Shown piece by piece: positions 7,418 to 22,318 of a stretch of DNA of 32,432 nucleotides (position 1 is the first letter of the stretch; every line of letters starts with the position of its first letter). The stretch comes from an uncultured Candidatus Saccharibacteria bacterium (lineage in GTDB: Bacteria > Patescibacteriota > Minisyncoccia > Phycocordibacterales > Phycocordibacteraceae). The stretch is from the NCBI GenBank assembly GCA_964418065.1, contig CAYQJR010000003.1, forward strand, positions 1-32,432. The letters run 5' to 3'. Made by a program: the position numbers and the translations under genes. The notes under the pieces are model-generated. The model had not been told where the DNA came from, searched no databases, and was given only the letters and a program-made list of their open reading frames with translations.

Positions 7418-7458
7418 GCGGGTATCATAGCGTACGACCCCGCCAATTCAACCTCCGA

Positions 7459-8118
7459 TCAAATTCTAGACTTTTCGAGCTGTACGACAAACGAGAGTGC
7501 GAAGAGCCCCGGAATAATTCGTGCAAGGAGGCGGAAGATCCCGCCGAATAAAAAGGAATGCTCGAAGATGGTGTTGACGCGCATATTTCTCAAAGAAAGA
7601 TTCTCCCTCCGTATCATACTCTGCAGTACATCCTGATTAAACCAGTAGATATGTCCCTTGTGGGGGTGATTGTTCTCGGGAACCCTACCAAAGAGCACTT
7701 GCAATCGCGCCGCGATTGAATTGAAATTCGGAACGCTCACGATTACCCACCGTCTTGAGACGCGCGCGGCTTCTCTCAACAATGCTTCGGGAGCGTAGAG
7801 ATGCTCAAGCACATCGAGCGCTGTCACGATGTCAAACGCGTTATCAGGGAACGGCAGAGGGCCGCTGATATCTCCCACAACGACGTCATGCCCCTTCGCA
7901 CGCGCCTTCTCCGCGCCTTTCTCCGAAATATCAACACCTTTTGCCTCAATACCCTTTTCTTTCACCAGCGAGAGGAGGAGTCCATCACCGCAGCCGACAT
8001 CAAGCAGCGTATGCGCATCCTTCGTTCCCGAAACGAGCCCGAGAGCCGCCCGATGACGGAACGATATCTTTTGGTCATCACGCGCCCAGCGCTCGTTCTC
8101 AAATGCCGTGACGCTCAT
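7459..8118 (-). CDS. Class I SAM-dependent methyltransferase (MetW-like)
   Basis: Start at ATG 8118 (ATGA overlap). LLDVGCGDG, GVDIS, LPFPDNAFD, DVLEHL, SVPNF. Confidence 0.9.
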   Translation of the reverse strand: MSVTAFENERWARDDQKISFRHRAALGLVSGTKDAHTLLDVGCGDGLLLSLVKEKGIEAKGVDISEKGAEKARAKGHDVVVGDISGPLPFPDNAFDIVTALDVLEHLYAPEALLREAARVSRRWVIVSVPNFNSIAARLQVLFGRVPENNHPHKGHIYWFNQDVLQSMIRRENLSLRNMRVNTIFEHSFLFGGIFRLLARIIPGLFALSFVVQLEKSRI

Positions 8119-9167: not shown

Positions 9168-9889
9168 GAATCGCGGCGCCGCGAGAACTGGAGGATAGAC
9201 GCGAACATCCGCAGTGAGTCGGAGAAGAGCGAGACTTTAGAAGTCGGACTATCAATCCAGAGAATGTCTTCCTGATGGATGGTGAGACCGTGCTTGCGTG
9301 CAAGAGCGATAAGCTCCGTATCAAAGAAGAAACCATCCTCTTTGAGCTCCGGAGCCACCGTTTCATATGCCTTCCGCGATATCGCTTTGAATCCGCACTG
9401 ATGGTCATCTACCGCAGTCCGCAAGAACAGCCGCACCATGGCGTTGTAGATTCGCGAGGCGTACTTCCGAAATTTCTTGTCGGTTACTATCTTGGACCCT
9501 TTGCCCAACCGATTTCCGATAGAAAGGTCAGAGGAGCCTGAAGCTACGGCTTCCACAAGCGGACGGAAGGAAGCGAGATCAGAAGAGAGGTCTGCGTCCA
9601 TGAATGTCAGGATGTCGCTCTCCACCCTGTTCCAGCCCGTACGAACGGCATGCCCCTTCCCTTTTTCAACGAGCTTGAGAAGTACGACTTCGGGATGGTG
9701 AGATGCAAACTCCGTCACAACAGCTGATGTTTCGTCCGTACTTGCGTTATCTACCACAGTAATCCGATAGCGATACGGAAATCGCGTCTTCTCAAGGAAG
9801 GCGATAAGGGTGCCGAGCGATTGCGCGATGATCTTCTCCTCGTTGTATGTGGGAATGATAATCGCGACAGATGAAGGCGGTGACAACAT
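9164..9889 (-). CDS. GT2 polyprenyl/dolichyl-phosphate glycosyltransferase (DPG-synthase-like)
   Basis: IIIPTYNEE, VDNASTD, GKGHAVRTG, FMDADLS, DHQCGFKA, FFDTE. Confidence 0.9.
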   Translation of the reverse strand: MLSPPSSVAIIIPTYNEEKIIAQSLGTLIAFLEKTRFPYRYRITVVDNASTDETSAVVTEFASHHPEVVLLKLVEKGKGHAVRTGWNRVESDILTFMDADLSSDLASFRPLVEAVASGSSDLSIGNRLGKGSKIVTDKKFRKYASRIYNAMVRLFLRTAVDDHQCGFKAISRKAYETVAPELKEDGFFFDTELIALARKHGLTIHQEDILWIDSPTSKVSLFSDSLRMFASILQFSRRRDS

Positions 9890-9897
9890 GGGTGCCC

Positions 9898-11397
9898 CTA
9901 TCTTACACTCTTTGTACCGGAGTTCGAGAGGCGTTCTAAAATCGTGTATTTATTATTCGTATCGGTAATCGCGTAGTGAGCAAGATGCGGCTCTGCACTG
10001 TCTAGAAGTCTCGTTTCTATGACAACGATATCCGGTATGCCCTCGGCGAGAACCTGGAGCTCCTGCACGCCCCACTGTACTGCCGCCGGATTACGGTAGG
10101 GAGCAATGTACTGGTAGTAATTCTCCGTGCGGATGAAGACCGCAACTTCGGGAGTGTTGTAGAAGAATACTGACTTGTCTTCCGGCACTCCAGCGAAGAA
10201 CGCTTCCCACGCCGCGGTCTTCGTTGAGGTATAGAAATCCGCGACCCAAGAATCAAACAAGAGTTGGTACCCGCTCATGAGGATGAGTCCTGCGCATACG
10301 AGAGCGGGTACCTTTGAGAAAAAGGGTGCGGACAGGCTGAATTGCGTCCGTAAGTACGCGACCACACGCGAGAGTGCGGACGGAAAAAAGAGCAGTGCAA
10401 TCGCCTGATACGGGAACAGATATCGATAGAAACCTCCGGTGCGTAAGTAAGCAAGAATAGAGATGATACAGAGAGCGTAGGCAATAATCTCTTCAAGAGA
10501 TACCTCTTCACTGGCTCTCTTGCGCACTATAACCGCGAGGGTCCACACCACCATCATCCCGAGGAGGAAGAGCGGGCCGATATCAGTAAAGAAGTGCGAC
10601 AGATTGCCGAGCACAAGACTCCCGAGTTTGGTCTCGGCTACTGCGTATGGATTTGCATAAAATCCGAGCGTCGTACGCAACGAGTCGGTATGCGAGAATT
10701 GCGTCGCCATCCATGTAAGGACGGGTATGGTAAAAGCGACCGCGCTCCACAGCAGTACCTTAGTGTCTTGTATAAATTCCCGCCCCTGGTGGAAGAGGCC
10801 GATGGCGAGGGCGGGCAGAAGAAGCAGGAATACCGGCTTGGTGACACAGGCAAGCCCAACGAAGAGGCCTGCGAGCATGGCGAAGCGTAGCCGCAGTGCC
10901 GCATTCGTTCGCGCGTAGTACAGGAAGAGGAGCGCGAGCGTGAGATAGAGGAGCCCCGGCACTTCGCCGAGCACGCTCTTTCCGTTTGCATACAGGGGCG
11001 GAAAGACCGAGAGGAGTGCAAGCGACCATAACGCGCTTCTGGTGCCGAACAACTTCCGCATGAGCGCGAAACCCGCGAGCGCGAAGCCGAGGATGAAGAA
11101 GACCATCACCGTCCGTGCCTGCTCCACGCCGTACCCGAACGTATTGAAGGCAAACGCGAGCGGGTACGTGAGCGGAAATCCGACGGTCATATACTGCCCT
11201 GAAAGGAAGGTCTGCGGATCTAACTGGATGCCGTAGGTATGAGAAGAGGCGATGTTGCGAGCGGTCTGTATGTAGAGTCCCTCGTCATACCAGATTGACG
11301 GGCTTTCGGTCAGCCGGAAAAGAGAAGAGGCCAGCACAACCCCAATAAGCAACAGAAATAGCGCCTTATGGGAGGCGGTAAATCTCGTATCTATCAT
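9898..11397 (-). CDS. GT-C fold membrane glycosyltransferase (ArnT/PMT-like)
   Basis: First TM helix followed by WYDE in loop 1, GLACVTKP, RYLFP, many TM helices and a soluble C-terminal domain. Confidence 0.82.
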   Translation of the reverse strand: MIDTRFTASHKALFLLLIGVVLASSLFRLTESPSIWYDEGLYIQTARNIASSHTYGIQLDPQTFLSGQYMTVGFPLTYPLAFAFNTFGYGVEQARTVMVFFILGFALAGFALMRKLFGTRSALWSLALLSVFPPLYANGKSVLGEVPGLLYLTLALLFLYYARTNAALRLRFAMLAGLFVGLACVTKPVFLLLLPALAIGLFHQGREFIQDTKVLLWSAVAFTIPVLTWMATQFSHTDSLRTTLGFYANPYAVAETKLGSLVLGNLSHFFTDIGPLFLLGMMVVWTLAVIVRKRASEEVSLEEIIAYALCIISILAYLRTGGFYRYLFPYQAIALLFFPSALSRVVAYLRTQFSLSAPFFSKVPALVCAGLILMSGYQLLFDSWVADFYTSTKTAAWEAFFAGVPEDKSVFFYNTPEVAVFIRTENYYQYIAPYRNPAAVQWGVQELQVLAEGIPDIVVIETRLLDSAEPHLAHYAITDTNNKYTILERLSNSGTKSVR

Positions 11398-13168
11398 CGG
11401 CGTATACTAGCACGGCTCCAATATTCTCCGGCTGATAGCGCGGGTTGAGCAGTTTGTCTTTCAGTATGTAGGAGACATGATACTTCGCCAGATACGCTTT
11501 GATGTTCGGCCTGATGTCGGTTCGTAACTTATGCTCAAGCGTAGCGAAGACTTCATCGCCGATAAACTCCTGATAGGTCGGCGGCGTCCCGCAATCCTTG
11601 TTCCCGTCCCAGAAGAAGAGCATCCGGCATACCTGGATACCGCGTTCAATGGTCTTGGGCTTGTGAGGATAATCCCCGCGGCCGAGGTAGAGGCGCATTT
11701 CACTTTCCTTCCGCAGGTCTTCAAGCGACGGATTGTTGAAGTATTGGGAGACGAGGTAGCGTTCGCGGACCTCCCCTTCAGGCATGAGTTCCAGCATCCC
11801 GTACATAGCGTAGAGCGTGAAGTGGCGCGTGAAAACGGGGATGTTGGCGGTGATAAAATCGTGCGGGTCGGCCCAGATGACGCTCGGGTTCTGCACATTC
11901 TCCTCTAGCCAGGCAAATGGCTTCGCATAGCGCTGCTCATCTTCCCATAGATTCTGTTCCGGGTGCCACAAATCTGGATGGACCGCTGACGGAAGGAAGG
12001 GCGAGAAATACTGGTAGGTGTAGTACCCGCTCACTGTGGAGAATAGGGTGAGTGCGGCGACCGCAAATGTCTTCAGTCCTAGAGAGAGCTGTACACGCCG
12101 CCGCCACAAGAGCGCCCCGATGCTCACCGTGGAGAACAGGAGCATGGGAAGGATAAAGATGCGGAGATGCTCGCCCGTCTCCAGCAATTTACCGGTGAAG
12201 AGGTTGCTTCCCTGCATAACCCAGAGCCCGAGATTGCTCAGGATGAGATACAAGGAGAGAAGCCTCCACTCTGCATCCTGCCGGAGTTCAGGGCTGCGCC
12301 ACAGGAGTACTGCGAGAAACGCGATAGTAGCGCCGGCCCACCCACCCGAATAGACGACCTCCGCCATCGGGAGATGGGTGTTCACGAGCCCGAGACGACT
12401 GACACTCTCCCAGAAGTAGGGCGAGGTGCGGGAGAGCCAGAGAGCGTAGAGCACGACGGGGAGCCCGATAACTCCCCCGATAAGCGAAGAGGAGAGGACC
12501 GCCTTCAGGAGCGGCCAGTTCCTACGGAGAAGCGCGTAGAGGAAGAGGAGGCCGAGCGTGATGACAAACGCCTGCCAAAGGTAGGAATAGAGATAGAACA
12601 TCACTCCCATCATCACGCCGAGGAAGATGGTGTTGCGGCGGCTCTGCTCGCGGATGAAGCGCACAAGCGCGATGCCGAATAAAAAATAGAAGGGGTACAC
12701 CGGCTGGAGATTGATGGGCCGCCATACATGCGCATACATTTGTAAGTACAGGGCAACGGTGCCGAACACGGCAACCCACGGCGGTGTGCGCACTTCGCGG
12801 AACAGATAGTAGAGCGCGAGTGCAAAGAGGAGGCTCCACAGGATGAAATTGAACAGCATAGCTGCGTTGTAGGAGAGACCGGCAAGTTGCGCGAGCGCGT
12901 TTATCCATGCGCCGGCGAAAATCACGAGCGGGAGATCAGTATGGTGTTCAAGGAAATACGGATGACCCCCGACAAAAGACCCTTTGACGATTGACTGCAC
13001 GCGGGCGGGATTGAAGGGCTCGTCGCCGAAGACCGGCATAATGCTTGGCCACGGAGTCCCGAGAACCAGAAACATATCTAGAAATGGGATGGTGGTGAGC
13101 ACTAGAATGATTCCCAGAAGAACCGCGAGCGATCGATGGAGCCGAAGTAAATCGCCCAGTTTTTGCAT
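11366..13168 (-). CDS. Multi-pass membrane protein, probable GT-C fold transferase
   Basis: Start reassigned to MQKLGD (13168). GDE after the first TM helix, HPYFLEH, roughly a dozen hydrophobic segments and a soluble C-terminal domain ending YHVSYILKD...YEIYRL. Confidence 0.65.
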   Translation of the reverse strand: MQKLGDLLRLHRSLAVLLGIILVLTTIPFLDMFLVLGTPWPSIMPVFGDEPFNPARVQSIVKGSFVGGHPYFLEHHTDLPLVIFAGAWINALAQLAGLSYNAAMLFNFILWSLLFALALYYLFREVRTPPWVAVFGTVALYLQMYAHVWRPINLQPVYPFYFLFGIALVRFIREQSRRNTIFLGVMMGVMFYLYSYLWQAFVITLGLLFLYALLRRNWPLLKAVLSSSLIGGVIGLPVVLYALWLSRTSPYFWESVSRLGLVNTHLPMAEVVYSGGWAGATIAFLAVLLWRSPELRQDAEWRLLSLYLILSNLGLWVMQGSNLFTGKLLETGEHLRIFILPMLLFSTVSIGALLWRRRVQLSLGLKTFAVAALTLFSTVSGYYTYQYFSPFLPSAVHPDLWHPEQNLWEDEQRYAKPFAWLEENVQNPSVIWADPHDFITANIPVFTRHFTLYAMYGMLELMPEGEVRERYLVSQYFNNPSLEDLRKESEMRLYLGRGDYPHKPKTIERGIQVCRMLFFWDGNKDCGTPPTYQEFIGDEVFATLEHKLRTDIRPNIKAYLAKYHVSYILKDKLLNPRYQPENIGAVLVYADDRYEIYRLP

Positions 13169-13178
13169 AGATAATGGC

Positions 13179-13210
13179 ATCATACCAGAACGCTGTGGTT
13201 GTGGTATTTT
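13179..13210. promoter_or_regulatory. Back-to-back divergent extended -10 boxes
   Basis: TGG-TATGAT on minus (13187-13179, 10 nt before ATG 13168) and TGG-TATTTT on plus (13202-13210, 6 nt before ATG 13217), in a 48-bp gap. Confidence 0.6.
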
Positions 13211-13216
13211 GTAGCC

Positions 13217-13957
13217 ATGCATAAAGGCAAGACGGTGAGCGTGGTCATCCCGACCTACAACGAGGAGGGGAGCATCCGTGCCGTTATTAATGGGTTCTTT
13301 GATACCGGTGTCGTTGACGAGGTGGTGGTGATTGATAACAACGCGCTCGGGAACACGAAGTATGAAGTCGCGCAGACGAAGGCGCGACTCGTTGATGAGA
13401 AAGAACATCAGGGCTACGGTCACGCGATGATGCGCGGACTGCGCGAGGCCACCGGCGACCTTGTCATCACCTGTGAGGGCGACGGCACCTTCCTGCCGAC
13501 TGATATTCACAAGTTCCTTGCCTATACGGACGAGTCCGAGGCGGTCCTCGGCACGCGCACCTCCCGCGCGGCGATATGGTCGGGTGCCTTCATGCCCTTC
13601 CCGGTGCGCGTCGGCAACTGGGCCGTTGCGAAATTCCTGGAGGTCCTCCATAACGGCCCGACCCTCACCGATGTCAGCTGTTCCTACAAACTCTTCTCGC
13701 GGAAAGTGCTTGAGAGCATCTTTGACTTGTTCCCGCTCTCTTCCGGCAAAGATTCATTCTCTTCGGAAATCATGATTTGGGTCATCCGGCGCGGGTGGGA
13801 TCCGATAGAAATCCCCGTGGTGTACAAGCAGCGCGTCGGCGTCTCATCGTACACGGGTGACAGCATCGTCAAAGCTGCGGGCATCGGCTTCAGAATGGTG
13901 CTGCAGGTGGTCCGCTATCGGCTCATGCATCTTGAGCGCCGCCCCTACAGCTCGTGA
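13217..13957 (+). CDS. GT2 DPM1-like polyprenol-phosphate glycosyltransferase
   Basis: SVVIPTYNEE, IDNN, GYGHA, EGDGT, TDVSCSYK, EIPVVYKQRVG. Confidence 0.9.
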   Translation: MHKGKTVSVVIPTYNEEGSIRAVINGFFDTGVVDEVVVIDNNALGNTKYEVAQTKARLVDEKEHQGYGHAMMRGLREATGDLVITCEGDGTFLPTDIHKFLAYTDESEAVLGTRTSRAAIWSGAFMPFPVRVGNWAVAKFLEVLHNGPTLTDVSCSYKLFSRKVLESIFDLFPLSSGKDSFSSEIMIWVIRRGWDPIEIPVVYKQRVGVSSYTGDSIVKAAGIGFRMVLQVVRYRLMHLERRPYSS

Positions 13958-13970
13958 TATCCTCCGGCAT

Positions 13971-14345
13971 ATGACTGACATACGTATACTCAAGGCCGCC
14001 AAGCACCCGAAGGGCTGGGGGGAAGAAATCTGGATTATTAATACCGACAAGTATTGCGGGAAGCTGCTTAAGTTTAATAAAGGCGCCCGCTTCAGCGACC
14101 ATTTCCATGTGAACAAGGACGAGGCGTGGTATGTGCTGGAAGGCAAGTTGGAGCTACGCTACTACAATCTCGCGAACGCCGAGAAGAAAATTAAGATTCT
14201 TAAAAAAGGCGATGTGGTGCACATCCCACCGACTAAGCCGCATCAGCTCCACGCACTTGCAGCATCAGTTGTAATAGAAGTCTCCACTCCGCACGACGAA
14301 GCCGACTCGTACCGCATCAACAAAGGCGACAGTCAAAAGAAGTAA
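13971..14345 (+). CDS. Single-domain cupin (type II phosphomannose isomerase / sugar ketol-isomerase-like)
   Basis: Start MTDIRI. KGWGEE, HFHVNKDEAWYVLEG and GDVVHIPPTKPHQL supply the His/His/Glu/His cupin metal ligands. Confidence 0.85.
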   Translation: MTDIRILKAAKHPKGWGEEIWIINTDKYCGKLLKFNKGARFSDHFHVNKDEAWYVLEGKLELRYYNLANAEKKIKILKKGDVVHIPPTKPHQLHALAASVVIEVSTPHDEADSYRINKGDSQKK

Positions 14346-14386
14346 GTAAAAAGTAAGTGCCGCACTCCCGTGAGGAAGTGCGGCAC
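14345..14386 (-). terminator. Intrinsic terminator of the EEP gene
   Basis: Minus strand GTGCCGCACTTCC-tcac-GGGAGTGCGGCAC (13-bp stem, one G-U) then TTACTTTTTACT, 15 nt after the stop at 14402. Confidence 0.85.
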
Positions 14387-14401
14387 CGAAGAACTGCGAG
14401 A

Positions 14402-15160
14402 TCACGCCCGCGAAACCGTCGCGAGGAGCGGCGTGTGGTCGGCAACACCGTGGAACTGGCGGACTTCTTCGTGAGGGTAGTAACGCCCCGCTCCGAAGAT
14501 GTAGTCGACGACCACGTGCGGCACTTCGCCACTCTTCAGACGCGCCGTGAGCTTATGGAGCTCGAGGTCCAGCGTGCAGGTAATTGAGCGCGGCGTCCAA
14601 TCCTTGAAGCGTGAGAGCGCAATGAGTTCCCTGTAGAGCGGACCATTTCGGAGCATCACCATGGCGCCGCACAGAACCATTTCTCCAGTGAGCTTGGCTG
14701 CTTCGATGAGAGAATGAAGCGCCGCATAGTGTTGCTCGCTTGCGGTGCCGTCCTTGCTGTACAGGAAATGCGTGTTGCCCACCCGATAGACCCTGCCATC
14801 ACGAACTACGTCGCATGCAAGGAGCGGTCGGCGCTTGGTCGCGTTGACCATCTCGGGCGTGCTCTCGTTGAAGAACAGCAACTCGGTTGCGTTGCCCATG
14901 TAGTACTGTTCGTGCACCCCGCCGACTACGAGATTGGTGCAGGTGACGAGTCCCATCGTTGTGCCATCGGGAAACTGCGTCATCGGCACAAACCGCACAA
15001 AGCGGTAAGCCTCGTGCAACTGCGGCACTTCGAAGTCCATCACCTCCTGCAGGCAAAGCACATCCACGTCTGCCTCCTCGGCGCACTTAAGAATACGGGG
15101 TACCTGCCCCTTGTCGCGCCCGAGGAAAACGCTCATGATATTCAGTTTCTGCTGGAGCAC
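14402..15160 (-). CDS. Endonuclease/exonuclease/phosphatase (EEP) fold protein, catalytically degenerate
   Basis: DVLCLQEV, NTHF, VDYIF and ADHTPL are present, but GDFN is replaced by GAMV. GTG start with SD AAAGGAGG 5 nt upstream. Confidence 0.85.
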   Translation of the reverse strand: MLQQKLNIMSVFLGRDKGQVPRILKCAEEADVDVLCLQEVMDFEVPQLHEAYRFVRFVPMTQFPDGTTMGLVTCTNLVVGGVHEQYYMGNATELLFFNESTPEMVNATKRRPLLACDVVRDGRVYRVGNTHFLYSKDGTASEQHYAALHSLIEAAKLTGEMVLCGAMVMLRNGPLYRELIALSRFKDWTPRSITCTLDLELHKLTARLKSGEVPHVVVDYIFGAGRYYPHEEVRQFHGVADHTPLLATVSRA

Positions 15161-15225
15161 GGTGTCCTCCTTTCAATGTTCGAGTATGGTTAGAATGCCG
15201 TCGCAGGAAATCCTGTTCCGGCGTC

Positions 15226-15255
15226 ACAATAGCACAGATATAGCCTATCTGTCAA
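15226..15255 (-). promoter_or_regulatory. Sigma70-type promoter TTGACA-N18-TATTGT (TGn extended) with an internal inverted repeat
   Basis: -35 at 15255-15250, overlapping the kinase stop; -10 at 15231-15226. ACAGATA-N5-TATCTGT at 15234-15252. Confidence 0.7.
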
Positions 15256-16010
15256 ATAGCACGTACTGGCCTCTTCTGGATTACCGTAACACCCTTGTGC
15301 TTCACGACTTCAGAGGCACATTCGTTTGCAAATGTGATTGCTTTTTCAATATCCCCCGTTTCCACATACTTCACGAGAAGCGCCGCGAAGAAGCTATCCC
15401 CCGCCCCGCTGACATCCTTCACCTCCACTTTTTCCGGAACTGGATAGTTCTTCTTGTTGAAGAACGCGCCTTGGTCGCCCTTGGTGTAGATGAGTTTCTT
15501 TTCAAGACCCTTCGGGAGAGATGCTTTTGACCGTTCGTATTCGTAATTGTTTATCTTGATGTATTTTGCCTTTGACGCCCAGTTGCCGAGAATCTTTTTC
15601 GTATCCATGAAGACATTCTTGTGGTGTTCACAGATATACTTGATATCCGCCTCGGTGAGGAACCCTTTGTTGTAATCAGAGATAGCAATCACATCATACT
15701 TGGCGAGTGGGATTTTCTTCATATCAACGCGCGGAATGCGGTGGTCGGTATCCACCCGGATAAACATATGATTCGTTGTGCCGTGCATATAGCGAGTCTT
15801 GGTGACCGTCTCCCACGAGTCGTTCGTATAGAGCTTCACGGCAGAGTAAATATTCTTCACATTCCGCTCCACGTTCGCTGCCATGCCGGGATTATCCTTC
15901 TGTTCAACAATGCTTAGCACAGGAACCGGTAGGTCAGGCGCCAGGCGCTCGGCCTTACAGTAAACAAATATGTCCCGGCAACTCTCTCCGACGATGAGAA
16001 TCTTTTTCAT
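15252..16010 (-). CDS. PfkB-family sugar kinase resembling the HldE/RfaE heptose-7-phosphate kinase domain (stand-alone, short)
   Basis: MKKILIVGE..D, ERLAPDLPVPV, PGMAANV..N, TKTRY, RVD, ISDYNKGFL, KINNYE, DVSGAGDSF. Confidence 0.88.
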   Translation of the reverse strand: MKKILIVGESCRDIFVYCKAERLAPDLPVPVLSIVEQKDNPGMAANVERNVKNIYSAVKLYTNDSWETVTKTRYMHGTTNHMFIRVDTDHRIPRVDMKKIPLAKYDVIAISDYNKGFLTEADIKYICEHHKNVFMDTKKILGNWASKAKYIKINNYEYERSKASLPKGLEKKLIYTKGDQGAFFNKKNYPVPEKVEVKDVSGAGDSFFAALLVKYVETGDIEKAITFANECASEVVKHKGVTVIQKRPVRAI

Positions 16011-16014
16011 ACTT

Positions 16015-17052
16015 CTAGAGCGTAAGAGACGGCGCAATGTGGAGCTCCTCAAACGAGAGCTTCGTGGTTAGCTTTGGCTTCTGAAATAGATCAAGGAGCG
16101 CATTCGCGATATCAATCTTGGTCGGGTAATAGAATTCCGTGAGTGCGGTTGAGGTTGGGCACGGCACGCTCGGACACGCTATTGAAATGGGAGCATCTTT
16201 GAGCTTGAGGGAGCGATTCTTGGCCACGCTCGCAATAACCTCGGAACCAATACTGAAGGCTTCGTTCGTCGTATCAATGCAAAATAGTCTGCCTGTTTTC
16301 GCCACCGAGGTAGCGATGGTTTTATAGTCAATCGGGTTGAGACTGAGGAGGTCAATAAGTTCTACCGATACCTGCTCTCCGATAAGTGCTAATGCTTCGT
16401 GCGCCGAGATGAGTCCGTCGCCGTACGCAACAACCGTTATATCCTTACCCTCTTTCACCACCTGTGCTTTATCAAGCGGCAGAGCGTACGGTTCGATAGG
16501 CACATTCTGCTTCACATTAAAAAGCCACCGCGACTCCAGCAGAACGACCGGATTCTTATCTTTGAGCGCCGCAATCAGCAGTCCTTTCGCCATTTTCGGT
16601 GTAGAAGGTATAACCACTTTTAGCCCGAGAACGTTACCGAAGAGCGAGTAGAGCGCCTGCGTGTGCTGGGGACCGTTCCCCCACTGCCTCCCCACGTTTA
16701 TGCGCAGAACGAGTGGGACGGGGTGGCCGCCGCCGAGCATATAATTCCACTTCGCCGCCTGGGTGAAAATCTGATCAGCCGCGAGCAGACTGAACTCAAC
16801 TCTTCCGTGATGCACAATCGGGTGGAGCCCGTTTATCGCCGCGCCGACAGCGAGACCAGTGAATGAAGACTCCGACACCGAGACATCAAGGATGCGTTCC
16901 GGATACTTCGCCTTCAGGCCGGCGGTGGTTCCATCAGCGCCGTTTTTGTATGAGACGCCGAGGCCCATCACGAACACAGAAGGGTCAACCTCCATCATCT
17001 GGTCGGTCGCCTCCTTCAGCGCCTCGGTGTATTTAAGTATTCTAGGAGGCAT
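16015..17052 (-). CDS. ThDP-dependent 2-oxoacid/acetoin dehydrogenase E1 beta-like subunit
   Basis: YTEAL, SESSFTGLAVGAA, EFSLLAADQ, GPQHTQ, NPVVLLE, GKDIT, ELIDLLSLNPID. Start could alternatively be 17058. Confidence 0.92.
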   Translation of the reverse strand: MPPRILKYTEALKEATDQMMEVDPSVFVMGLGVSYKNGADGTTAGLKAKYPERILDVSVSESSFTGLAVGAAINGLHPIVHHGRVEFSLLAADQIFTQAAKWNYMLGGGHPVPLVLRINVGRQWGNGPQHTQALYSLFGNVLGLKVVIPSTPKMAKGLLIAALKDKNPVVLLESRWLFNVKQNVPIEPYALPLDKAQVVKEGKDITVVAYGDGLISAHEALALIGEQVSVELIDLLSLNPIDYKTIATSVAKTGRLFCIDTTNEAFSIGSEVIASVAKNRSLKLKDAPISIACPSVPCPTSTALTEFYYPTKIDIANALLDLFQKPKLTTKLSFEELHIAPSLTL

Positions 17053-18001
17053 AGACATCGGTGTAGAGACTCTCCTTCGCGGGATACGGGGCGGCGACGG
17101 CATACTGGATACATTCTAGGGTATAGGCGCGGATATCGTTCTCCATGCGCGCTAGCTCTTCAGCAGATACTCCTTGCGTTAAAAGCTGATTCTTCACTTT
17201 CTTAAGTGAATCCTGCTCCAACCGCTTTTCAAGCACATCTTCTTCCCGATAGCCCTGCGCATCGTCAAAGATGGGCGCGCTGTGGGCCATATGCCGATAG
17301 GTTACGCATTCAAGAACGGCAGGATTCCCTTTACGCACTTCGGCCACCAGCGTCTTCGCCTTCTCAAATACATCCTGATAGTTATTCCCGTCAGCCTTCA
17401 TATACGCGACGCCGATGCCGGTAACGACTTTCTCCGTATTGTATTGCTTTGATCTCCGGTCCTGTATCTTTGAGTTGACCGAGTAGAGATTGTTCTCTAT
17501 GACGAATAGGAGCGGTAATTTAAAAAGCGCTGCGAGATTCAGCGTCTCGTACATCACTCCCTCTTCCGAAGCGCCATCACCGAAGAATACCGCCGTCACC
17601 TCATTCCTCTTATTGTATTTTTGTTCAAACGCGCTCCCGCTTGAAAGGGGGATGACGCTCCCGAGTATCGGCGTAGAGCCGACGAAGTTAACCGAGGTAT
17701 CTACCATATGCATGGACCCTCCCTTGCCTTTGCAACAGCCCTCTTCCTTACCGAGGAGCTCGCAGACCATACGCTTCAAATCGCCTCCTTTGGCGAGGTA
17801 GTGGCCGTGCGAACGATGATTGCCCATCGCCCGATCATTCTTCTCCAGAGCGTCGCAGACTCCGACTGCAACCGCTTCTTGCCCGACATAGAAGTGAACG
17901 AAGCTCATCACCTTGTTCTCAAGATAGAACTTCGCGATTTCCTCTTCAGCAATACGAATGGAGAGCATTCGCTTATACACGTCCTGTAATGCAGTCTTCA
18001 T
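17042..18001 (-). CDS. ThDP-dependent E1 alpha-like subunit
   Basis: HFYVGQEA, HRSHGH, GKGGSMH, ThDP motif GDGASEEG...ENN, TYRHMAHS. Confidence 0.93.
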   Translation of the reverse strand: MKTALQDVYKRMLSIRIAEEEIAKFYLENKVMSFVHFYVGQEAVAVGVCDALEKNDRAMGNHRSHGHYLAKGGDLKRMVCELLGKEEGCCKGKGGSMHMVDTSVNFVGSTPILGSVIPLSSGSAFEQKYNKRNEVTAVFFGDGASEEGVMYETLNLAALFKLPLLFVIENNLYSVNSKIQDRRSKQYNTEKVVTGIGVAYMKADGNNYQDVFEKAKTLVAEVRKGNPAVLECVTYRHMAHSAPIFDDAQGYREEDVLEKRLEQDSLKKVKNQLLTQGVSAEELARMENDIRAYTLECIQYAVAAPYPAKESLYTDVYAS

Positions 18002-18004
18002 AGG

Positions 18005-19039
18005 CTACATCTCGATGAGCACTCTTCCTGCTTGGCCGTTTCTCACAAGAGTGATAACCTCGTTTATTTGAGGAAGTTTCATCCGGTGCGTGATGATGCC
18101 GTCGGTCTTCAGCACGCCGGCTTTGTGGAGGCGCACATACCGCGCGATGTCCGAGCTTGGCGAGAATCCTCCGCCCTGCGTCGCCTTAATGCTTTTCCCC
18201 TCGCCCGCGAAGAGGTGGAGCGCAGTATGGAGCTCTATACTCTCCCCTGGCTTCGGCTGGCCCACCATGATGTAGCGGCCGATACCGCTTAGAAGCGGTA
18301 TCGTGCTCTCTATCGCTGTCTTACTTCCCGAGGTATCAATGATGACATCTATCTCCTTGGTGCCGAAGGTCTTATTAATCTCTTCTGCTATTGAACTTGT
18401 CTTTGAATTAATGAAAAGGTGGGCACCCATGGTCTTGCTGGTCTCTCTTTTATTCTCGTGGATGTCGGTCACGACGATGGGATATGCGCCCGCGAGCTTC
18501 GCCGCCTGGATGAGATTCACCCCGAGTCCGCCCGCGCCAACGATAAGCACGCTCTCGCCGAACTTCACCTCCGCCTCCTGATTAATCGTGCCGAGCGCCG
18601 TTGAGAGACTGCAGCCGAGAAGCGCACAGAGTTCGTTCGGCGTATCCTGCGGCACCGGAGTAATCCTATTCTCCGAGACTATCGCGTACTCGCACAAGGT
18701 ATTGACCTTCCCGCTTTTCATCGGCTTACCCTTATAAGTATAGGTTGGGAAGTCTGACTCAATGCCGTCGCCCTTCCGCCAGTGCATCACCACCTTGTCG
18801 CCCTTCTTCACGCGGGTAACGCCGTGACCGACCTCCTCAACGATGCCGCACCCTTCGTGCCCCATGAGATGCGGGACGAACTTCGCATTCCCCTTGTTGC
18901 CCGCAATCTCCTGCAACTGTGATCCGCAGAATCCGCTTACGAGAATCTTGACCCGTACCTGGCCGAAGGTAAGCGGGGTGAGTTCCACATCCCCAACCAC
19001 GAGCGGTGCGTCTATTGTCTCGAGTATCGCGGCTTTCAT
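18005..19039 (-). CDS. Zn-dependent medium-chain dehydrogenase (MDR) lacking the structural-Zn lobe
   Basis: Start MKAAIL. GFCGSQ, GHEGCGIV..VG.GV...K.GD.V, LLGC, GAGGLG; no Cx2Cx2Cx7C. Confidence 0.9.
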   Translation of the reverse strand: MKAAILETIDAPLVVGDVELTPLTFGQVRVKILVSGFCGSQLQEIAGNKGNAKFVPHLMGHEGCGIVEEVGHGVTRVKKGDKVVMHWRKGDGIESDFPTYTYKGKPMKSGKVNTLCEYAIVSENRITPVPQDTPNELCALLGCSLSTALGTINQEAEVKFGESVLIVGAGGLGVNLIQAAKLAGAYPIVVTDIHENKRETSKTMGAHLFINSKTSSIAEEINKTFGTKEIDVIIDTSGSKTAIESTIPLLSGIGRYIMVGQPKPGESIELHTALHLFAGEGKSIKATQGGGFSPSSDIARYVRLHKAGVLKTDGIITHRMKLPQINEVITLVRNGQAGRVLIEM

Positions 19040-19069: not shown

Positions 19070-19771
19070 ATGTCGAGTATTCTCTTTGATTATCACCAAG
19101 GGCTTGGTGACCATATTATATGCAGCGGTATTGTCCGAGAATACTGCAAAAAGTACGATCGTGTCGGCATCTTTTGCCTATCGCGAAACTATCCTTCTAT
19201 CTCGTTTCTGTACCGCGACCTCGCGAATCTGCGCATCCACCGAGTTGAGTCGTATGCCGAGAAGTATCGCTTCCGCCTCCTGAATGCATTCCGATTTGGG
19301 AAGAATCATTACGATACCGTGCACGTTATCGGGGCCTATGACCAGGAATCGGGGATCCTCTTTGAACGCCAAATCTACAAGCTGGCTGGTTTTGACATCA
19401 AGAAGAAGTGGGAGAACTTCTTCGTGAAGCGTGACGCTGAAAGAGAGCAGAATCTGGGTAAGAAAGCCGGATTGTCGGGGCCCTATGCGTTTGTCCACGA
19501 TGACGGTCGCTACCCGCTGGATTCTGCGCGAATTGCCTCCCCCCTCCCGCTCTTTCGGCCGGACCCGAAGCTGACGGAGAGCATGTTCGATTATTGCGGG
19601 ATTATAGAACGCGCGGATGAGATCCATGTCATTGACTCTTCATTTATGTTTCTCGTGGACTGCCTCCCCTACACGAACCAAAATCAGAAACTCTTCGTCC
19701 ATCGCTACGCGCGGCTCAATCCGCCCGTCCAGATGCCACTCCTGAAGAAACAGTGGCACATTCTCACTTGA
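19070..19771 (+). CDS. Uncharacterised GT9-like protein, paralog 2
   Basis: YHQGLGDH, IHVIDSSFMFL; colinear with 4164-4943. Confidence 0.6.
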   Translation: MSSILFDYHQGLGDHIICSGIVREYCKKYDRVGIFCLSRNYPSISFLYRDLANLRIHRVESYAEKYRFRLLNAFRFGKNHYDTVHVIGAYDQESGILFERQIYKLAGFDIKKKWENFFVKRDAEREQNLGKKAGLSGPYAFVHDDGRYPLDSARIASPLPLFRPDPKLTESMFDYCGIIERADEIHVIDSSFMFLVDCLPYTNQNQKLFVHRYARLNPPVQMPLLKKQWHILT

Positions 19772-19773
19772 TT

Positions 19774-20598
19774 ATGAAGAAGATTATTATTACCAAGCCC
19801 GGCTGTCGAGAACTCGCAAATCATTTGTGGAATTATATGAGTGTGTATGCGTATGGTCTGGAGACCGGAGCACGCGTACTAAATCCGTCATTCTCCGCTT
19901 GGCACCAATATTTCAACCTCCGGAGCTCTTTTCTCGGGCGTCTATGGGGGATGGTTGATTCGCTCTACGGAAGTTATGTCGTCCGTGCGCATAAGAAGTG
20001 CGCCCTGCTCGCAGTGAATGAAATCGTGCACCTGCCGCCGAAGAAAGATGCCTGTGACACGCTTTACTGCATCGGCTGGTTCTTCAGAAATCCTCGCGGG
20101 CTGGAGCGATATAGAAAGGAGATTGTCACTGCCTTTGAGCCGAGAGAATATATTCGCAGAGAAATAGACACTGCACTCGCTCCGCTTAGAGGAAAGACGC
20201 TGATAGGAGTCCAACTGCGGCAGAAACCCTTCCCGGGATTTCCCAATGGGGACTTCCTCGTCTCCCCTCTACGCGTCCGCCAGATTATTGAGGAGTATCT
20301 CCGCGAACATGCACTGGATGCGCGAGATGTTGCGCTTGTGATTGTCTCGGATAAGAATGTTGACCCCCTTGCCTTTGACGGATTCGCCGCACAAGTGATT
20401 CGCGCAGATGCCGCCACCTTCCTCTTCTCGCTCGCAAGGTGTAGCGTGGTCATCGGACCAAACTCAACCTCGAGTAATCTTGCCGCGTGGTTCGGCAATG
20501 TCCCGCATATCGTCACGACAAACGAGTCAATTGATTGGGAGTACTATCGCGATAAGAAAATATATTTTGAGAACAAATACGCGACCTTTGCGCAGTAG
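19774..20598 (+). CDS. Divergent GT11 (alpha-1,2-fucosyltransferase-like) protein
   Basis: ELANHLWNY (GLGNQMF-like), GWFF, GVQLRQ (HVRRGD position), VSD, GPNSTSS..AAW (NSTFSWW-like). Confidence 0.65.
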   Translation: MKKIIITKPGCRELANHLWNYMSVYAYGLETGARVLNPSFSAWHQYFNLRSSFLGRLWGMVDSLYGSYVVRAHKKCALLAVNEIVHLPPKKDACDTLYCIGWFFRNPRGLERYRKEIVTAFEPREYIRREIDTALAPLRGKTLIGVQLRQKPFPGFPNGDFLVSPLRVRQIIEEYLREHALDARDVALVIVSDKNVDPLAFDGFAAQVIRADAATFLFSLARCSVVIGPNSTSSNLAAWFGNVPHIVTTNESIDWEYYRDKKIYFENKYATFAQ

Positions 20599-20600
20599 AT

Positions 20601-21305
20601 TTATTTACGAACGAAGATGGAGTTTATATGGGTGTCTGCGTAGAGAGTGTAGCCCTGCGCGAGTACGTAGTCTACAATCGCCTTCTGCTTCTCTTCTTTC
20701 CCCGCATCATTAAAGCGCAGTGTCTCCACACACATGACCTGCGGCGCATATTGCTTAAAATCGAGCGACTGCAGTATCTCCAAGTCGTATCCCTCCGTGT
20801 CTATTGAGAGGATATCAACTCCGTGCGGGAAATAGGTGTGCATCAGCGAGTTAATCGCGACAAGCGGGATGTCTATCACGCGTTCTATCGCCTGTTTGCC
20901 GTAATTCGTGCTTGCCACCATGCTGTCGGCCTCGTCTTTCTTGAAGGTACTCAATTGCTTGGACGTCATGACATAGAACGGGACGCTCGTGCTGTCTCGT
21001 GTGCCGATGCCAACATTCAAACAAACATCATTTCTTGTTTTCTTGATTACCCGGTAGACCTCGGGATCCGGTTCAACCAGAACGCCTCTATCCCCCCTCG
21101 TGTAGAAGAGGTAGGTATTGTTGTTATAAATGGGGTGATTAGTCCCTATATCAAGATAGGTCGGGTTTTGTATCCCGAGCCTCCTAACCGCAGAAGCAAT
21201 AATAATGTCCTCTCCGTTTTGCGAATAGCTGTGTTTATATTTCCGAGAGAGCGTGTAGGAAATGAAGTCTGTCCATGTCTTCAGCTTCAGATATTTTGTA
21301 TTCAT
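20601..21305 (-). CDS. FkbM-family methyltransferase
   Basis: SYSQNGED, YLDIGTNHP, NNTY, VEPD, LSIDTEGYD. Confidence 0.9.
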   Translation of the reverse strand: MNTKYLKLKTWTDFISYTLSRKYKHSYSQNGEDIIIASAVRRLGIQNPTYLDIGTNHPIYNNNTYLFYTRGDRGVLVEPDPEVYRVIKKTRNDVCLNVGIGTRDSTSVPFYVMTSKQLSTFKKDEADSMVASTNYGKQAIERVIDIPLVAINSLMHTYFPHGVDILSIDTEGYDLEILQSLDFKQYAPQVMCVETLRFNDAGKEEKQKAIVDYVLAQGYTLYADTHINSIFVRK

Positions 21306-22318
21306 ACCAGTACTTTAGCGCAAGCTGATACAACCTCGGGTATCGCTATTTTGCCGAGGCAATCAGAATATCCTCTGTTCACTTTATGTCCATCGGTACA
21401 CAAATCAGCGCGTGAGAGGACCGAAACGGGCGTCTCCGGCGCATACTGCCCTGCTTGCCACCAGTGAATCCCGAGACAGCCCGCGAGCACCACAAGCGGC
21501 TTCCCGAGCTGGGCCGTCATATGCGCCATACCGGTGTCCACACTCACTACCCCCCGGCTCCCGACTATCAGATTCATCATTTCTTGGAGCGTGGTCTCGC
21601 CAGCGAGTACTCGCGCATTGAGACCCTCCGCTACCTGCTCCGCTTCCGCTCTATCGCCCTTCCCTCCACTTATAACGAGACGAGTATCTGGAAACGCCGT
21701 GTGAAGAGCTGTGAGGAGCTCGCGCTTCTTCTCCGGGTGGAGTCCGCGGCTTTTATTGCCGGCAAACAGATGAACTACCAGATACGCGCCGGTAAGACCG
21801 TGTTTCTCTGTCACTCGCGAGTCTGGAATGTAGTTGAGCGTGGGCCACTCCTGTCTGACTGGAATCCCCGCGGCGCCAAGCGCTTTGCGCTCAAGGAGCG
21901 CGGGGGGCTCCTTCTGGGTAAATGAAACTATCTTGTCATACAGAAGTGCGTTTATCTTTGACGCGTCCACGAACCCGATAAGCCCGCCTCGCTTCGCGAG
22001 CAGGCGGGCGGCGAGCTTGCTCGCGAGGCTGAATTTGCCACCCTTTTTACCTGCATATTGTGTTACCACGAGGTCGCTCCCGTGGAAATTAGTCCAGAGA
22101 TGCGACAACGAACGCGAATTCCGGCGATTCGCTTCAATCACCTCCAGCCATGGGTAGGCGCTGAATAAATCGCGCATCAAATCTCCGTGATTCGCGACTA
22201 CGATGCCGCAGCGCGCTTGCGGGAATTCTGCATGCACATTCTCCAGGAGGTACTTCCCCATCAGACAGTCCCCCACGGAGGAGGCACGGAAGGTGAGAAC
22301 TTTCTTGATGTTTTTCAT
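21302..22318 (-). CDS. Glycosyltransferase family 9 (heptosyltransferase WaaC/WaaF-like)
   Basis: SSVGDCLM, LAGETTL, VSVDTGMAHMTAQLGKP, C-terminal Cys pair. Confidence 0.88.
   Translation of the reverse strand: MKNIKKVLTFRASSVGDCLMGKYLLENVHAEFPQARCGIVVANHGDLMRDLFSAYPWLEVIEANRRNSRSLSHLWTNFHGSDLVVTQYAGKKGGKFSLASKLAARLLAKRGGLIGFVDASKINALLYDKIVSFTQKEPPALLERKALGAAGIPVRQEWPTLNYIPDSRVTEKHGLTGAYLVVHLFAGNKSRGLHPEKKRELLTALHTAFPDTRLVISGGKGDRAEAEQVAEGLNARVLAGETTLQEMMNLIVGSRGVVSVDTGMAHMTAQLGKPLVVLAGCLGIHWWQAGQYAPETPVSVLSRADLCTDGHKVNRGYSDCLGKIAIPEVVSACAKVLV

Follow-up and report, generated by a model that had tools for sequence, protein, structure and literature searches.

In the biosynthesis of several actinomycete antibiotics, E1-like protein pairs use pyruvate to attach acetyl branches to keto-sugars, reduction of the branch being the next step (PMC4753412, PMC12247030). 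The pairs, termed alphaKADH2 (AviB1/AviB2, Pau11/Pau12, the aldgamycin pair and KbDH-alpha/beta), are stand-alone PDH-E1-like alpha and beta proteins, encoded among sugar-biosynthesis genes with no E2 or E3; the C2 unit that they take from pyruvate goes to the carbonyl of a sugar, after which a separate reductase may reduce the branch (PMC4753412, PMC12247030). The review PMC12247030 presents a proposal, unproven in vitro, for how Streptomyces forms the hydroxyacetyl branch in miharamycin and amipurimycin: an oxidoreductase makes the keto-sugar and a split-gene transketolase then adds the C2 unit. Both papers (PMC4753412, PMC12247030) describe YerE of yersiniose A, which puts a pyruvate-derived C2 branch on a sugar of a cell-surface polysaccharide. 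YerE is a single-chain ThDP flavoenzyme of the decarboxylase superfamily, in contrast to the E1alpha/beta pair considered here, and its acceptor is a CDP-linked 3,6-dideoxy-4-keto-hexose. Two other systems share parts with the locus described below, namely the ADP-L-glycero-D-manno-heptose pathway (GmhA, HldE/HldA, GmhB, HldC and HldD) and the acetoin and pyruvate dehydrogenases AcoAB(C,L) and PdhAB.

The window, by which we mean the whole 32,432-nucleotide stretch of DNA analysed, belongs to a 555-kb genome that is 90% complete, on a contig open at both ends. It carries a gene module that resembles the alphaKADH2 pairs. An earlier sequence-only reading took the module for an unusual-sugar route rather than central PDH, and proposed an E1alpha/beta phylogeny, a genome search for E2, E3 and lipoate ligase and a gene-neighbourhood survey as checks; that interpretation is partly supported by the results given here. 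The features concerned are as follows.

2087-4167, plus strand: Wzm/Wzt-type ABC exporter of the glycan locus (ABC2_membrane, ABC_tran and a weak Wzt_C match)
4164-4943, plus strand: second copy of the compact GT9-like gene, downstream of wzt
5525-7417, minus strand: fused double SDR, epimerase/dehydratase-type, with two Epimerase/NAD-binding regions
13971-14345, plus strand: small metal-type cupin, PMI-like (Pfam Cupin_2), convergent with the operon
14356-14387, minus strand: terminator-like hairpin with a 14-bp stem, between the EEP ORF and the cupin
14402-15160, minus strand: last gene of the operon, coding for an EEP-superfamily protein of 252 aa (candidate sugar-bisphosphate phosphatase)
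15252-16010, minus strand: short PfkB kinase (Pfam PfkB), 252 aa, 4 nt past the E1beta stop
16015-17058, minus strand: E1beta (Pfam Transket_pyr and Transketolase_C), start uncertain
17042-18001, minus strand: E1alpha, ThDP-dependent subunit (Pfam E1_dh), starting 3 nt past the MDR stop
18005-19039, minus strand: MDR, a Zn-dependent medium-chain, ADH-like dehydrogenase (Pfam ADH_N and ADH_zinc_N), first gene of the operon
19070-19771, plus strand: glycosyltransferase of the compact GT9-like type (233 aa), transcribed away from the MDR across a 30-nt gap
19753-20598, plus strand: 281-aa protein, recurring beside the module (7 of 25 loci)
21302-22318, minus strand: canonical GT9 of the heptosyltransferase family (PF01075, E 2e-13)

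In the ORFs and translations of the window, the four core genes (MDR, E1alpha, E1beta and kinase) all lie on the minus strand, with the orientation and the spacing (3 nt, an overlap and 4 nt) previously reported for them. The E1alpha/E1beta overlap comes to 11-62 nt, because in-frame E1beta ATGs stand at 17103, 17058 and 17052. The cupin had been placed just beyond the module; it does adjoin the end of the operon, but on the plus strand and convergently, with the 252-aa EEP ORF intervening. This ORF, between kinase and cupin, is absent from the sequence-only reading. The hairpin came from a consensus scan whose total site count was not above that of shuffles. MDR, E1alpha and E1beta are contiguous in all related loci whose contig reaches far enough, and their arrangement is not due to chance.

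The E1 subunits have the same domain architecture as AcoAB and PdhAB, at ~38-40% identity. In Pfam scans, E1alpha matches PF00676 (E 1.3e-62) and E1beta matches PF02779 and PF02780; on the curated models TIGR03182 and PRK09212 they reach 301 bits (cut-off 394) and 248 bits (cut-off 321), respectively. Kinase, E1alpha and E1beta all fall under NCBIfam curated cut-offs, which we count against the reading preferred below. What sets the window apart from AcoAB and PdhAB is its gene context, its separate clade and the missing partners: the 34 window proteins scanned gave no match to the Pfam E2, lipoyl or E3 families, as had been noted for these 32 kb, and E2 (PF00198), the lipoyl domain (PF00364), the E3 dimerisation domain (PF02852) and lipoate ligase (PF03099) were not found in the 90%-complete genome either. 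A full-length E1alpha was found in 11 of 151 genomes sampled from the order and E2 in three; the two co-occur in G062 alone, where the E1alpha, at 28% identity, belongs to a different type. E2 was found in none of the six genomes of this sample that carry the window-type E1.

In a 91-row E1alpha tree, the window sequence falls within a 24-row clade (SH-aLRT 99), nested in a 76-row clade (SH-aLRT 100) that leaves out PdhA, AcoA and a Phaeobacter E1 having E2 and E3. Among the other members of the larger clade are E2-less pairs encoded in a glycan cluster on an Azospirillum plasmid, in a GT9/radical-SAM/GT41 locus and in CPR loci linked to HldE or a 4,6-dehydratase. A constraint grouping the window clade with AcoA was rejected (delta lnL 123, p-AU 0.00017), in a quick tree search whose rows were picked by likeness to the query and for an AU group named once the tree had been seen; the rows do not include the characterised AviB1, Pau11, AlmDI and KbDH sequences. 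Together with the missing E2, lipoyl domain, E3 and lipoate ligase, this position outside PdhA and AcoA bears out the claim that the pair is not central PDH, and speaks equally against an acetoin complex.

An HMM scan of gene neighbourhoods covered 25 loci (the window, L003-L023, L037, L041 and L046) after removal of three duplicates, across which the linkage to glycan and heptose genes proposed from the window is conserved. MDR-E1alpha-E1beta is found in at least 23 Patescibacteria loci, usually with the kinase next: the MDR is present in 23 of the 25 and as a fusion in L010, while the contig of L041 begins at E1alpha. The short kinase occurs in 18 loci, the compact GT9-like gene in 12, an HldE-II-like adenylyltransferase and an HldD-like gene in 10 each, Wzt in eight, canonical GT9 in seven, GmhA in five and GmhB in four. 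Within the 151-genome sample, MDR orthologs (at least 65% identity) occur in six genomes, each time adjoined by a ThDP pair; the short kinase occurs in six and the compact GT9-like gene in five of these same genomes, and the genes are co-inherited. The best solved relatives of the MDR are class I/III alcohol dehydrogenases, and in L010 and L012 the MDR is fused to E1alpha with no intervening stop codon.

In one genome, G027, E1alpha/beta is replaced: the MDR and the kinase are retained, at 70% and 59% identity respectively, and between them lies a split transketolase, additional to the housekeeping one. With the same MDR and kinase on either side of the swap, the constant function would therefore be ThDP-dependent C2 transfer rather than 2-oxo acid oxidation. 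The pairing of an oxidoreductase, here the MDR, with a split transketolase is the one proposed for miharamycin and amipurimycin, whereas the ThDP enzyme of the window is of the E1alpha/beta type. A literature search found no description of an MDR-E1alpha-E1beta-kinase module.

The kinase (Pfam PfkB, E 7e-20) scores 118 bits on TIGR02198, below the cut-off of 345. The top seven Foldseek matches of its predicted model (pLDDT 89.3) are all HldA of B. cenocepacia (E 2e-18 to 8e-17; other families begin at 5e-13), and in L008, L015 and L021, where full ADP-heptose sets adjoin the module, no other kinase accompanies GmhA, GmhB, the adenylyltransferase and HldD. Model and gene context thus uphold its earlier description as HldA-like and make it a candidate heptose-7-phosphate 1-kinase. 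L013 has a full-length HldE-I-like kinase instead, with GmhA and rfaE_dom_II matches above NCBIfam cut-offs. The window genome departs from the known pathway: GmhA, GmhB and an HldE-II-like transferase were not found in its 90%-complete assembly. Nor did it contain a member of PF00483, PF12804 or PF01467; no sugar nucleotidyltransferase was seen, which we also count against the preferred reading. Since G034, G053 and G069 carry the module with neither gmhA nor the cupin, known enzymes leave gaps in the heptose route of most carriers, a further point against that reading.

Two window proteins may stand in, non-orthologously, for the missing enzymes. The cupin (Cupin_2, E 1e-10) reaches 20.3 bits on MannoseP_isomer, below the cut-off of 23.6; a relative encoded in G077 carries a fused cytidylyl/adenylyltransferase part and matches PF01050 at 82.5 bits. 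It is a candidate PMI-like aldose-ketose isomerase in place of GmhA. Its earlier assignment as the isomerase of the module holds in so far as it is PMI-like and all seven loci that have it lack GmhA, but it is not co-oriented and those seven are out of 25. The EEP ORF has no Pfam match from its own sequence, whereas a profile of five homologs aligns with a G088 protein bearing PF03372 (hhalign probability 99.95, E 4e-38); it is present in five of 25 loci, none of which has GmhB, and is a candidate sugar-bisphosphate phosphatase in the place of that enzyme. Nothing in the known ADP-heptose pathway corresponds to MDR-E1alpha/beta.

Pfam confirms that the module is flanked by glycosyl- and methyltransferases (GT9, three FkbM, GT2, GT4 and PMT_2). 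The canonical GT9 matches heptosyltransferase I, II and III models below their cut-offs. The two compact GT9-like copies are 50% identical, and in a Foldseek search with the family model (pLDDT 92.8) the ten best matches were GT9 heptosyltransferases without exception, WaaF, WaaC and TibC being the closest; we regard them as a new family with a predicted GT9 fold, in keeping with their earlier naming. The family is confined to module genomes in the order sample, and certain members (P0196, P0218) have a GmhB-like HAD phosphatase as fusion partner. The 281-aa protein has no Pfam or NCBIfam match, and its former assignment to GT11 is not confirmed. The double SDR matches the HldD-like profile weakly (38.8 bits) and could possibly supply a further redox or epimerase step.

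We know of no alphaKADH2 pair described for cell-surface glycans. The window module differs from those pairs in lying within a Patescibacteria cell-surface glycan locus and not an antibiotic cluster, in its ADP-heptose-type context (HldA-like kinase, GT9) as against dTDP-/NDP-6-deoxyhexoses, and in having as fixed partner a Zn-ADH, sometimes fused to E1alpha, rather than an AKR. An NDP-sugar 4,6-dehydratase is not part of the conserved core, a further point counted against the preferred reading.

Of the other ways to read the module, the strongest, though still unlikely, is that the MDR and ThDP enzyme build the substrate of the kinase from a C2 unit and a pentose phosphate or similar compound, reaching a heptulose- or heptose-type phosphate without GmhA. 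The lack of gmhA from all six carrier genomes of the order sample, three complete ones lacking the cupin too, would agree with this, as would the transketolase that takes the place of E1alpha/beta in G027, this being the enzyme type that classically yields sedoheptulose-7-P. However, every carrier checked has a housekeeping split transketolase, the module copy of G027 being a second, divergent one, and GmhA lies beside MDR-E1alpha/beta in L008, L013, L015, L016 and L021; because the two share an operon in L013, the module is there an addition to the canonical route. On chemical grounds, moreover, the pyruvate-derived product would be a 1-deoxy-ketose, which is not isomerisable to an aldose. 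Somewhat less likely is a non-sugar substituent (acetoin-, butanediol- or hydroxyethyl-type, pyruvate-derived and ADH-reduced) attached to the glycan, with the kinase acting elsewhere. Acetoin/butanediol chemistry does follow the same logic of ADH plus E1-type carboligase, and tailoring enzymes abound at the locus, among them methyltransferases (three of them FkbM), while L014 has a carbamoyltransferase; yet the genes with which the module is tightly co-inherited encode an HldA-like kinase and GT9-type transferases, not acyl or alkyl transferases, and the core showed no enzyme that would activate such a unit.

Readings that place the module in energy metabolism fare worse. These bacteria are fermenters, and an E2-less E1 acting as pyruvate decarboxylase could feed acetaldehyde to an ADH for reduction to ethanol, the glycan context being incidental; the likeness of the MDR to class I/III alcohol dehydrogenases and an MDR::E1alpha fusion suited to channelling acetaldehyde would fit. 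We consider this improbable, as the module is present in only ~6 of the 151 genomes, always within glycan/heptose loci and co-inherited with the kinase and GT9-like gene, and its E1 pair is replaced by a transketolase in G027. Least probable, and already disfavoured, is acetoin/2,3-butanediol catabolism by AcoAB and a butanediol dehydrogenase, the alternative that the sequence-only reading itself had named as its refutation. Homologs are named 'acetoin:DCPIP oxidoreductase alpha' in some sources, and MDR-type butanediol dehydrogenases adjoin acoAB in known aco operons; but AcoC/E2, a lipoyl domain, E3 and lipoate ligase were not found in the 90%-complete genome, the true aco operon compared reads acoR-acoX-acoA-acoB-acoC-lplA, and both tree and AU test set the window clade apart from AcoA.

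On balance we favour, with moderate confidence, the reading in which ThDP-dependent C2 addition and a Zn-ADH redox step tailor a heptose-type sugar of the surface glycan. From the gene content, the absence of E2 and E3, the conserved linkage, the fusions, the transketolase replacement, the folds and the tree position, we infer donor, acceptor, step order, product and MDR role as follows. The kinase would act as a heptose-type anomeric kinase, with isomerisation by the cupin or GmhA, dephosphorylation by the EEP or GmhB phosphatase and nucleotidylation by the HldE-domain-II-like transferase, each where present. The stand-alone E1alpha/beta pair would deliver a C2 unit, most likely hydroxyethyl/acetyl from pyruvate, via ThDP to the carbonyl of a heptose-derived sugar, and the Zn-ADH would either create that acceptor carbonyl or reduce the new keto group. 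The product would be a C2-branched or C2-extended heptose-type sugar, moved by the GT9-type enzymes. The five-gene operon, together with the cupin and the GT9 and compact GT9-like genes, would then constitute a sugar-building module for the cell-surface glycan of these bacteria, rather than a part of their energy metabolism.

The operon is carried by contig C3, which makes up the entire 32.4-kb window and is open at both ends, in an assembly (G000) of 555 kb and 36 contigs that is 90% complete; the nearest homologs of its genes are labeled as Patescibacteria. It and the neighboring cupin are laid out as follows:

Operon and adjacent features in contig C3
18005-19039, minus strand: Zn-type medium-chain dehydrogenase (MDR), assigned by Pfam
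17042-18001, minus strand: E1alpha (PF00676)
16015-17058, minus strand, start uncertain: E1beta (PF02779 + PF02780)
15252-16010, minus strand: short PfkB kinase (PF00294)
14402-15160, minus strand: fifth operon gene, a 252-aa ORF assigned to the EEP superfamily by hhalign
3' of the fifth operon gene: terminator-like hairpin of 14 pairs
13971-14345, plus strand: cupin, convergent with the operon

The junctions described in a sequence-only reading of this DNA, namely a 3-nt gap between MDR and E1alpha, an overlap of E1alpha and E1beta, and a 4-nt gap between E1beta and the kinase, were all recovered. A cupin near the kinase, also claimed there, is indeed present, but it lies on the opposite strand, converging on the operon, and the 252-aa ORF had gone unmentioned.

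The remainder of the contig is, by its Pfam matches, a glycan locus with a Wzm/Wzt exporter, GT2, GT4, GT9, two PMT_2-type and GtrA genes, three FkbM and other methyltransferases, and SDR genes of the epimerase/dehydratase type. It also encodes a 630-aa protein (5525-7417, minus strand) that is a fusion of two SDR halves (epimerase/thioester-reductase-like), a GT2 gene resembling AglJ and Dol-P-hexose transferases (13199-13957, plus strand), and a 761-aa membrane ORF with no family match (11366-13651, minus strand), whose first ~150 codons overlap the opposite-strand GT2 gene, so that its true start is probably later. Three further proteins are without a family match (1-1029, plus; 1073-1999, minus; 19753-20598, plus), the second showing only a weak match to T7SS_signal (E 0.0015). 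The third repeatedly adjoins the module (7/25 of the loci mapped below); compared with GT11 it reaches no better than E 0.13.

The E1 pair displays the domain architecture of the PdhAB/AcoAB type, with PF00676 in E1alpha and PF02779 plus PF02780 in E1beta. On the family models, E1alpha scores 301.3 with TIGR03182, under the equivalog cut-off of 393.85, and E1beta 248.2 with PRK09212, under the cut-off of 321. The lack of a lipoyl E2 or E3, initially remarked for the window, extends to the whole of the 90% complete genome: E2 (PF00198), lipoyl (PF00364), E3 dimerization (PF02852), and lipoate ligase (PF03099) domains were all not found, each family being detected in 10-14 of 14 control genomes searched in the same manner. 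Of 151 genomes sampled from the order, 11 encode a full-length E1alpha and 3 an E2. G062 alone encodes both, and its E1alpha belongs to a different type (28% identical); none of the six carriers of the window-type E1alpha (G000, G034, G042, G053, G069, and G071) has an E2.

For comparison, we used three annotated reference plasmid records, which respectively contain an aco operon (acoR-acoX-acoA-acoB-acoC-lplA), a pdhAB pair, and an E1alpha/beta pair accompanied by genes for a lipoyl protein, E2, and lpdA. An E1alpha tree of 91 rows, built by a quick search from rows selected by likeness to the query, puts the window protein in a clade of 24 rows (SH-aLRT 99) nested in one of 76 rows (SH-aLRT 100), and all three references, PdhA and AcoA included, fall outside the latter. 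Ten protein clusters examined among the nearest outgroups of the E1alpha clade are all nameless. Constraining the window clade to group with AcoA costs 123 log-likelihood units and is rejected by the AU test (p-AU 0.00017), the tested group having been named post hoc with the tree already seen. The earlier contention that this is not a central pyruvate dehydrogenase is thus borne out by both the failure to find E2, E3, and lipoate ligase in the 90% complete genome and the separation of the E1alpha clade from PdhA and AcoA: the window E1 pair is not part of a dehydrogenase complex.

The 76-row clade contains other E2-less pairs with varied genomic associations. On an Azospirillum ramasamyi plasmid (NZ_CP029835.1, 33767-52684), the pair is surrounded by an HddC-like nucleotidyltransferase/GmhB fusion and by genes for an SDR, a DegT aminotransferase, an MtnA-like isomerase, a sulfotransferase, and TPR proteins; the bearer of this related module can be cultivated. 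In a proteobacterial MAG, the pair is placed between a GT9-like gene, a radical SAM enzyme, and three TPR-GT41 proteins. Pairs of a second CPR type have as neighbors HldE-like genes, a radical SAM enzyme, or a gene resembling 4,6-dehydratases, the last of these neighboring E1 only in this type (locus L036). On the Streptomyces griseofuscus plasmid pSGRIFU1, the pair adjoins a condensation-domain protein, an ACP, and a PPTase, with butyrolactone-regulator genes around them, an instance of this E1 clade employed outside sugar metabolism.

A genome scan recovered 21 Patescibacteria loci with an E1alpha 58-75% identical to that of the window. Together with the window, two more loci from the order sample, and a variant from the genome G027, these constitute a set of 25 loci mapped with HMMs, which excludes three duplicates and the loci with E1 of other types.

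Occurrence of gene families in the 25 mapped loci
MDR: 23/25, and additionally as a fusion in L010; the contig of L041 starts at E1alpha
E1beta: 25/25
Short kinase: 18/25, and additionally a full-length HldE-I-like kinase in L013
Compact GT9-like family: 12/25
Canonical GT9: 7/25
HldE-II-like adenylyltransferase: 10/25; immediately 3' of the kinase in L018, L019, and L022
GmhA: 5/25
GmhB: 4/25
HldD-like SDR: 10/25
Cupin: 7/25
EEP-like ORF: 5/25

The proposed linkage to glycan genes hence holds across these loci, with GT9, compact GT9-like, and heptose genes as the recurrent neighbors. In L013, gmhA is the gene immediately upstream of MDR, and the GmhA and rfaE_dom_II matches of this locus are above the NCBIfam cut-offs. 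In L008, L015, and L021, GmhA, GmhB, the adenylyltransferase, and HldD are all present, and the short kinase is the sole kinase. Concordantly, the same few of the 151 genomes account for the compact GT9-like family (5 genomes), for the short kinase (6), and for MDRs of at least 65% identity (6). The constant oxidoreductase of the 25-locus map is the MDR, with no NDP-sugar 4,6-dehydratase in the conserved core; an extra classical SDR within the operon in L008, L010, L015, and the G027 locus would be in keeping with a pair of distinct redox steps. The idea that the module replaces GmhA as a rule is unsupported, as five loci carry both.

The MDR and E1alpha are physically joined in two loci (L010:8322-10298 and L012:296-2284), where the MDR frame continues into E1alpha without a stop codon. 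The G027 locus (L046, G027:C3:7000-25000; 7339-13952, minus strand) reads GT9 ... SDR, HldE-II-like transferase, MDR, split transketolase (255 + 294 aa), and short kinase. Here, an MDR 70% identical and a kinase 59% identical to those of the window flank the split transketolase, which takes the place of E1alpha/beta. As G027 has a housekeeping transketolase elsewhere in its genome, the module transketolase is an extra copy, and its exchange with E1alpha/beta between the MDR and the kinase suggests that the constant function at this position is ThDP-dependent C2 transfer.

The kinase, some 60 residues short of HldA in length, has the PfkB (ribokinase-like) fold (PF00294; model pLDDT 89.3). The top seven Foldseek matches of its model are HldA chains (E 2e-18 to 8e-17), which are ahead of the other PfkB kinases by five orders of magnitude in E-value, the next family coming at 5e-13. 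Going by this model, HldA is its best match, making the short kinase a candidate heptose-7-phosphate kinase. Its original description as HldE-like is sustained by this fold and by the heptose-gene context in L008, L015, and L021, but not by TIGR02198, on which it scores 118 bits against a cut-off of 345, in a match confined to the C-terminal two thirds.

Divergent from the MDR lies a gene (19070-19771) that, with a paralog of 50% identity (4164-4943), defines a compact family of 251 detected members without a Pfam match; neither window protein matches PF01075 or any other Pfam family even at E 5. The window proteins, at 233-259 aa, are small against the approximately 320-350 aa of GT9. Sequence-based comparisons are equally silent (hhalign probability of 0.5% against the window GT9; best PDB sequence match at E 0.83), and the family is assignable by fold search only: its model (pLDDT 92.8) retrieves GT9 heptosyltransferases of the WaaC/WaaF-like fold as all of its top 10 Foldseek matches (probability 1.00, E 6.5e-5 to 6.5e-4, TM 0.45-0.57). 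The modeled structure thus points to a GT9-like fold and a putative glycosyltransferase. Many other members reach ~400-450 aa, with an additional region without a Pfam match, and two homologs of 4164-4943 (P0196 and P0218) have a GmhB-like HAD phosphatase as fusion partner, an indirect hint that ADP-heptose may be the donor; hhalign found no relation between the family and the Azospirillum HAD fusion.

The fifth operon gene has neither a direct Pfam hit nor a PDB sequence match. It aligns with a PF03372-bearing protein of the genome G088 (hhalign probability 99.95, E 4e-38; PF03372 in the latter at E 8e-11), and by this profile relationship is an EEP-superfamily protein. In G088, the relative belongs to an operon (L048:1620-6092, minus strand) coding for the EEP phosphatase, an RpiB-like isomerase fused to a cytidylyltransferase, a PfkB kinase, a 390-aa protein, and a class II aldolase, which looks like another sugar-activation route made from non-orthologous parts. 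The cupin scores 20.3 bits on PF01050, below the 23.6 cut-off, and retrieves only generic bicupins and dioxygenases among PDB sequences; its relative in G077 (E 5.5e-8), a genome of the same family as G000, passes that cut-off with 82.5 bits, and on these sequence similarities the window cupin is probably PMI-like and a candidate isomerase. In G077 (L047:3280-4152), the PMI-type cupin and a cytidylyl/adenylyltransferase form a single fused protein of 290 aa, encoded in a GT4/GDP-mannose-dehydratase locus without an E1 pair.

In the 25-locus map, the seven cupin loci and the five GmhA loci show zero overlap, as do the five EEP and four GmhB loci, which suggests non-orthologous replacement of heptose-route parts. 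The module would thereby expose such a pattern in heptose activation: cupin for GmhA, EEP for GmhB, and the compact GT9. Replacement of GmhA by the cupin as a general rule was rejected, since G034, G053, and G069 carry neither gene.

The supply of nucleotide sugars in the window genome itself presents a gap. GmhA, GmhB, and the HldE-II-like transferase were not found in this 90% complete genome, and its 555-kb assembly has no member of the sugar nucleotidyltransferase families PF00483, PF12804, and PF01467, with more than ten glycosyltransferases on contig C3 alone. The missing nucleotidyltransferase and heptose genes may be located in the 10% not assembled or past the open contig ends; alternatively, the organism may obtain nucleotide sugars in another way.

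E1-like pairs are described as acting in antibiotic sugar pathways, providing a model for C2 addition (PMC4753412; PMC12247030), and an oxidoreductase with a split transketolase pair has been proposed for the attachment of C2 units to sugars (PMC12247030). From these precedents and the gene neighborhoods, we infer that the module most likely combines heptose-type sugar activation with a tailoring step by the Zn-dependent alcohol dehydrogenase (the MDR) and the stand-alone ThDP enzyme. Activation would proceed through an isomerase, an anomeric kinase, a phosphatase, and a nucleotidyltransferase to GT9-type transfer. By analogy with the antibiotic-sugar pairs, the ThDP enzyme would place a C2 unit on a sugar carbonyl, and the dehydrogenase would act either before this step, making the acceptor carbonyl, or after it, reducing the keto group just formed. 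A more specific scheme, which we regard as unlikely, has the dehydrogenase acting on a heptose phosphate or ADP-heptose, one hydroxyl of which it would oxidize to give an aldehyde or ketone that would pass straight to the E1 active site; such direct handover would explain the natural dehydrogenase-E1alpha fusions. Acyloin condensation with pyruvate would then yield a nine-carbon, deoxy, higher-carbon, or branched sugar, to be activated in an HldA-like way via non-orthologous parts (PMI-like cupin, short kinase, and EEP phosphatase) and transferred by the miniature GT9, with the ThDP part exchangeable between E1alpha/beta and the split transketolase. If true, ultra-small bacteria would make a higher-carbon sugar of their envelopes by a route not yet described.

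The closest known systems to the proposed heptose-type tailoring module are the alphaKADH2 sugar-branching pairs, the ADP-heptose pathway, and YerE, which serves cell-surface sugars. The alphaKADH2 trait, a stand-alone E1alpha/beta without E2 within a sugar-biosynthesis gene cluster, is present here. A genome scan with the Streptomyces plasmid E1alpha gave 80 loci, none from the known producers of AviB1/Pau11/AlmDI/KbDH-type pairs. Set apart from these systems, the module of Patescibacteria joins an E1 pair lacking E2 to a constant and in some loci fused Zn-dependent dehydrogenase partner within a heptose-type surface-glycan context; our search of published articles found no paper on an E1alpha/beta pair in glycan or heptose loci of Patescibacteria/CPR.

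Genome pipelines name the homologs 'pyruvate dehydrogenase E1' or 'acetoin oxidoreductase', an annotation that would wrongly credit the ultra-small, metabolically poor Patescibacteria with a piece of central carbon metabolism. The alphaKADH2 sugar-branching pairs are placed mainly in specialized natural products by a review (PMC12247030). If our reading is right, the ThDP-dependent sugar tailoring of Streptomyces antibiotics extends to the primary cell-surface glycans of an uncultured phylum, and the natural fusion of the dehydrogenase with E1 and the exchange of E1 for transketolase would offer starting points for identifying the substrate as well as for biocatalysis. It would also point to an unknown heptose-derived sugar on these host-attached cells.
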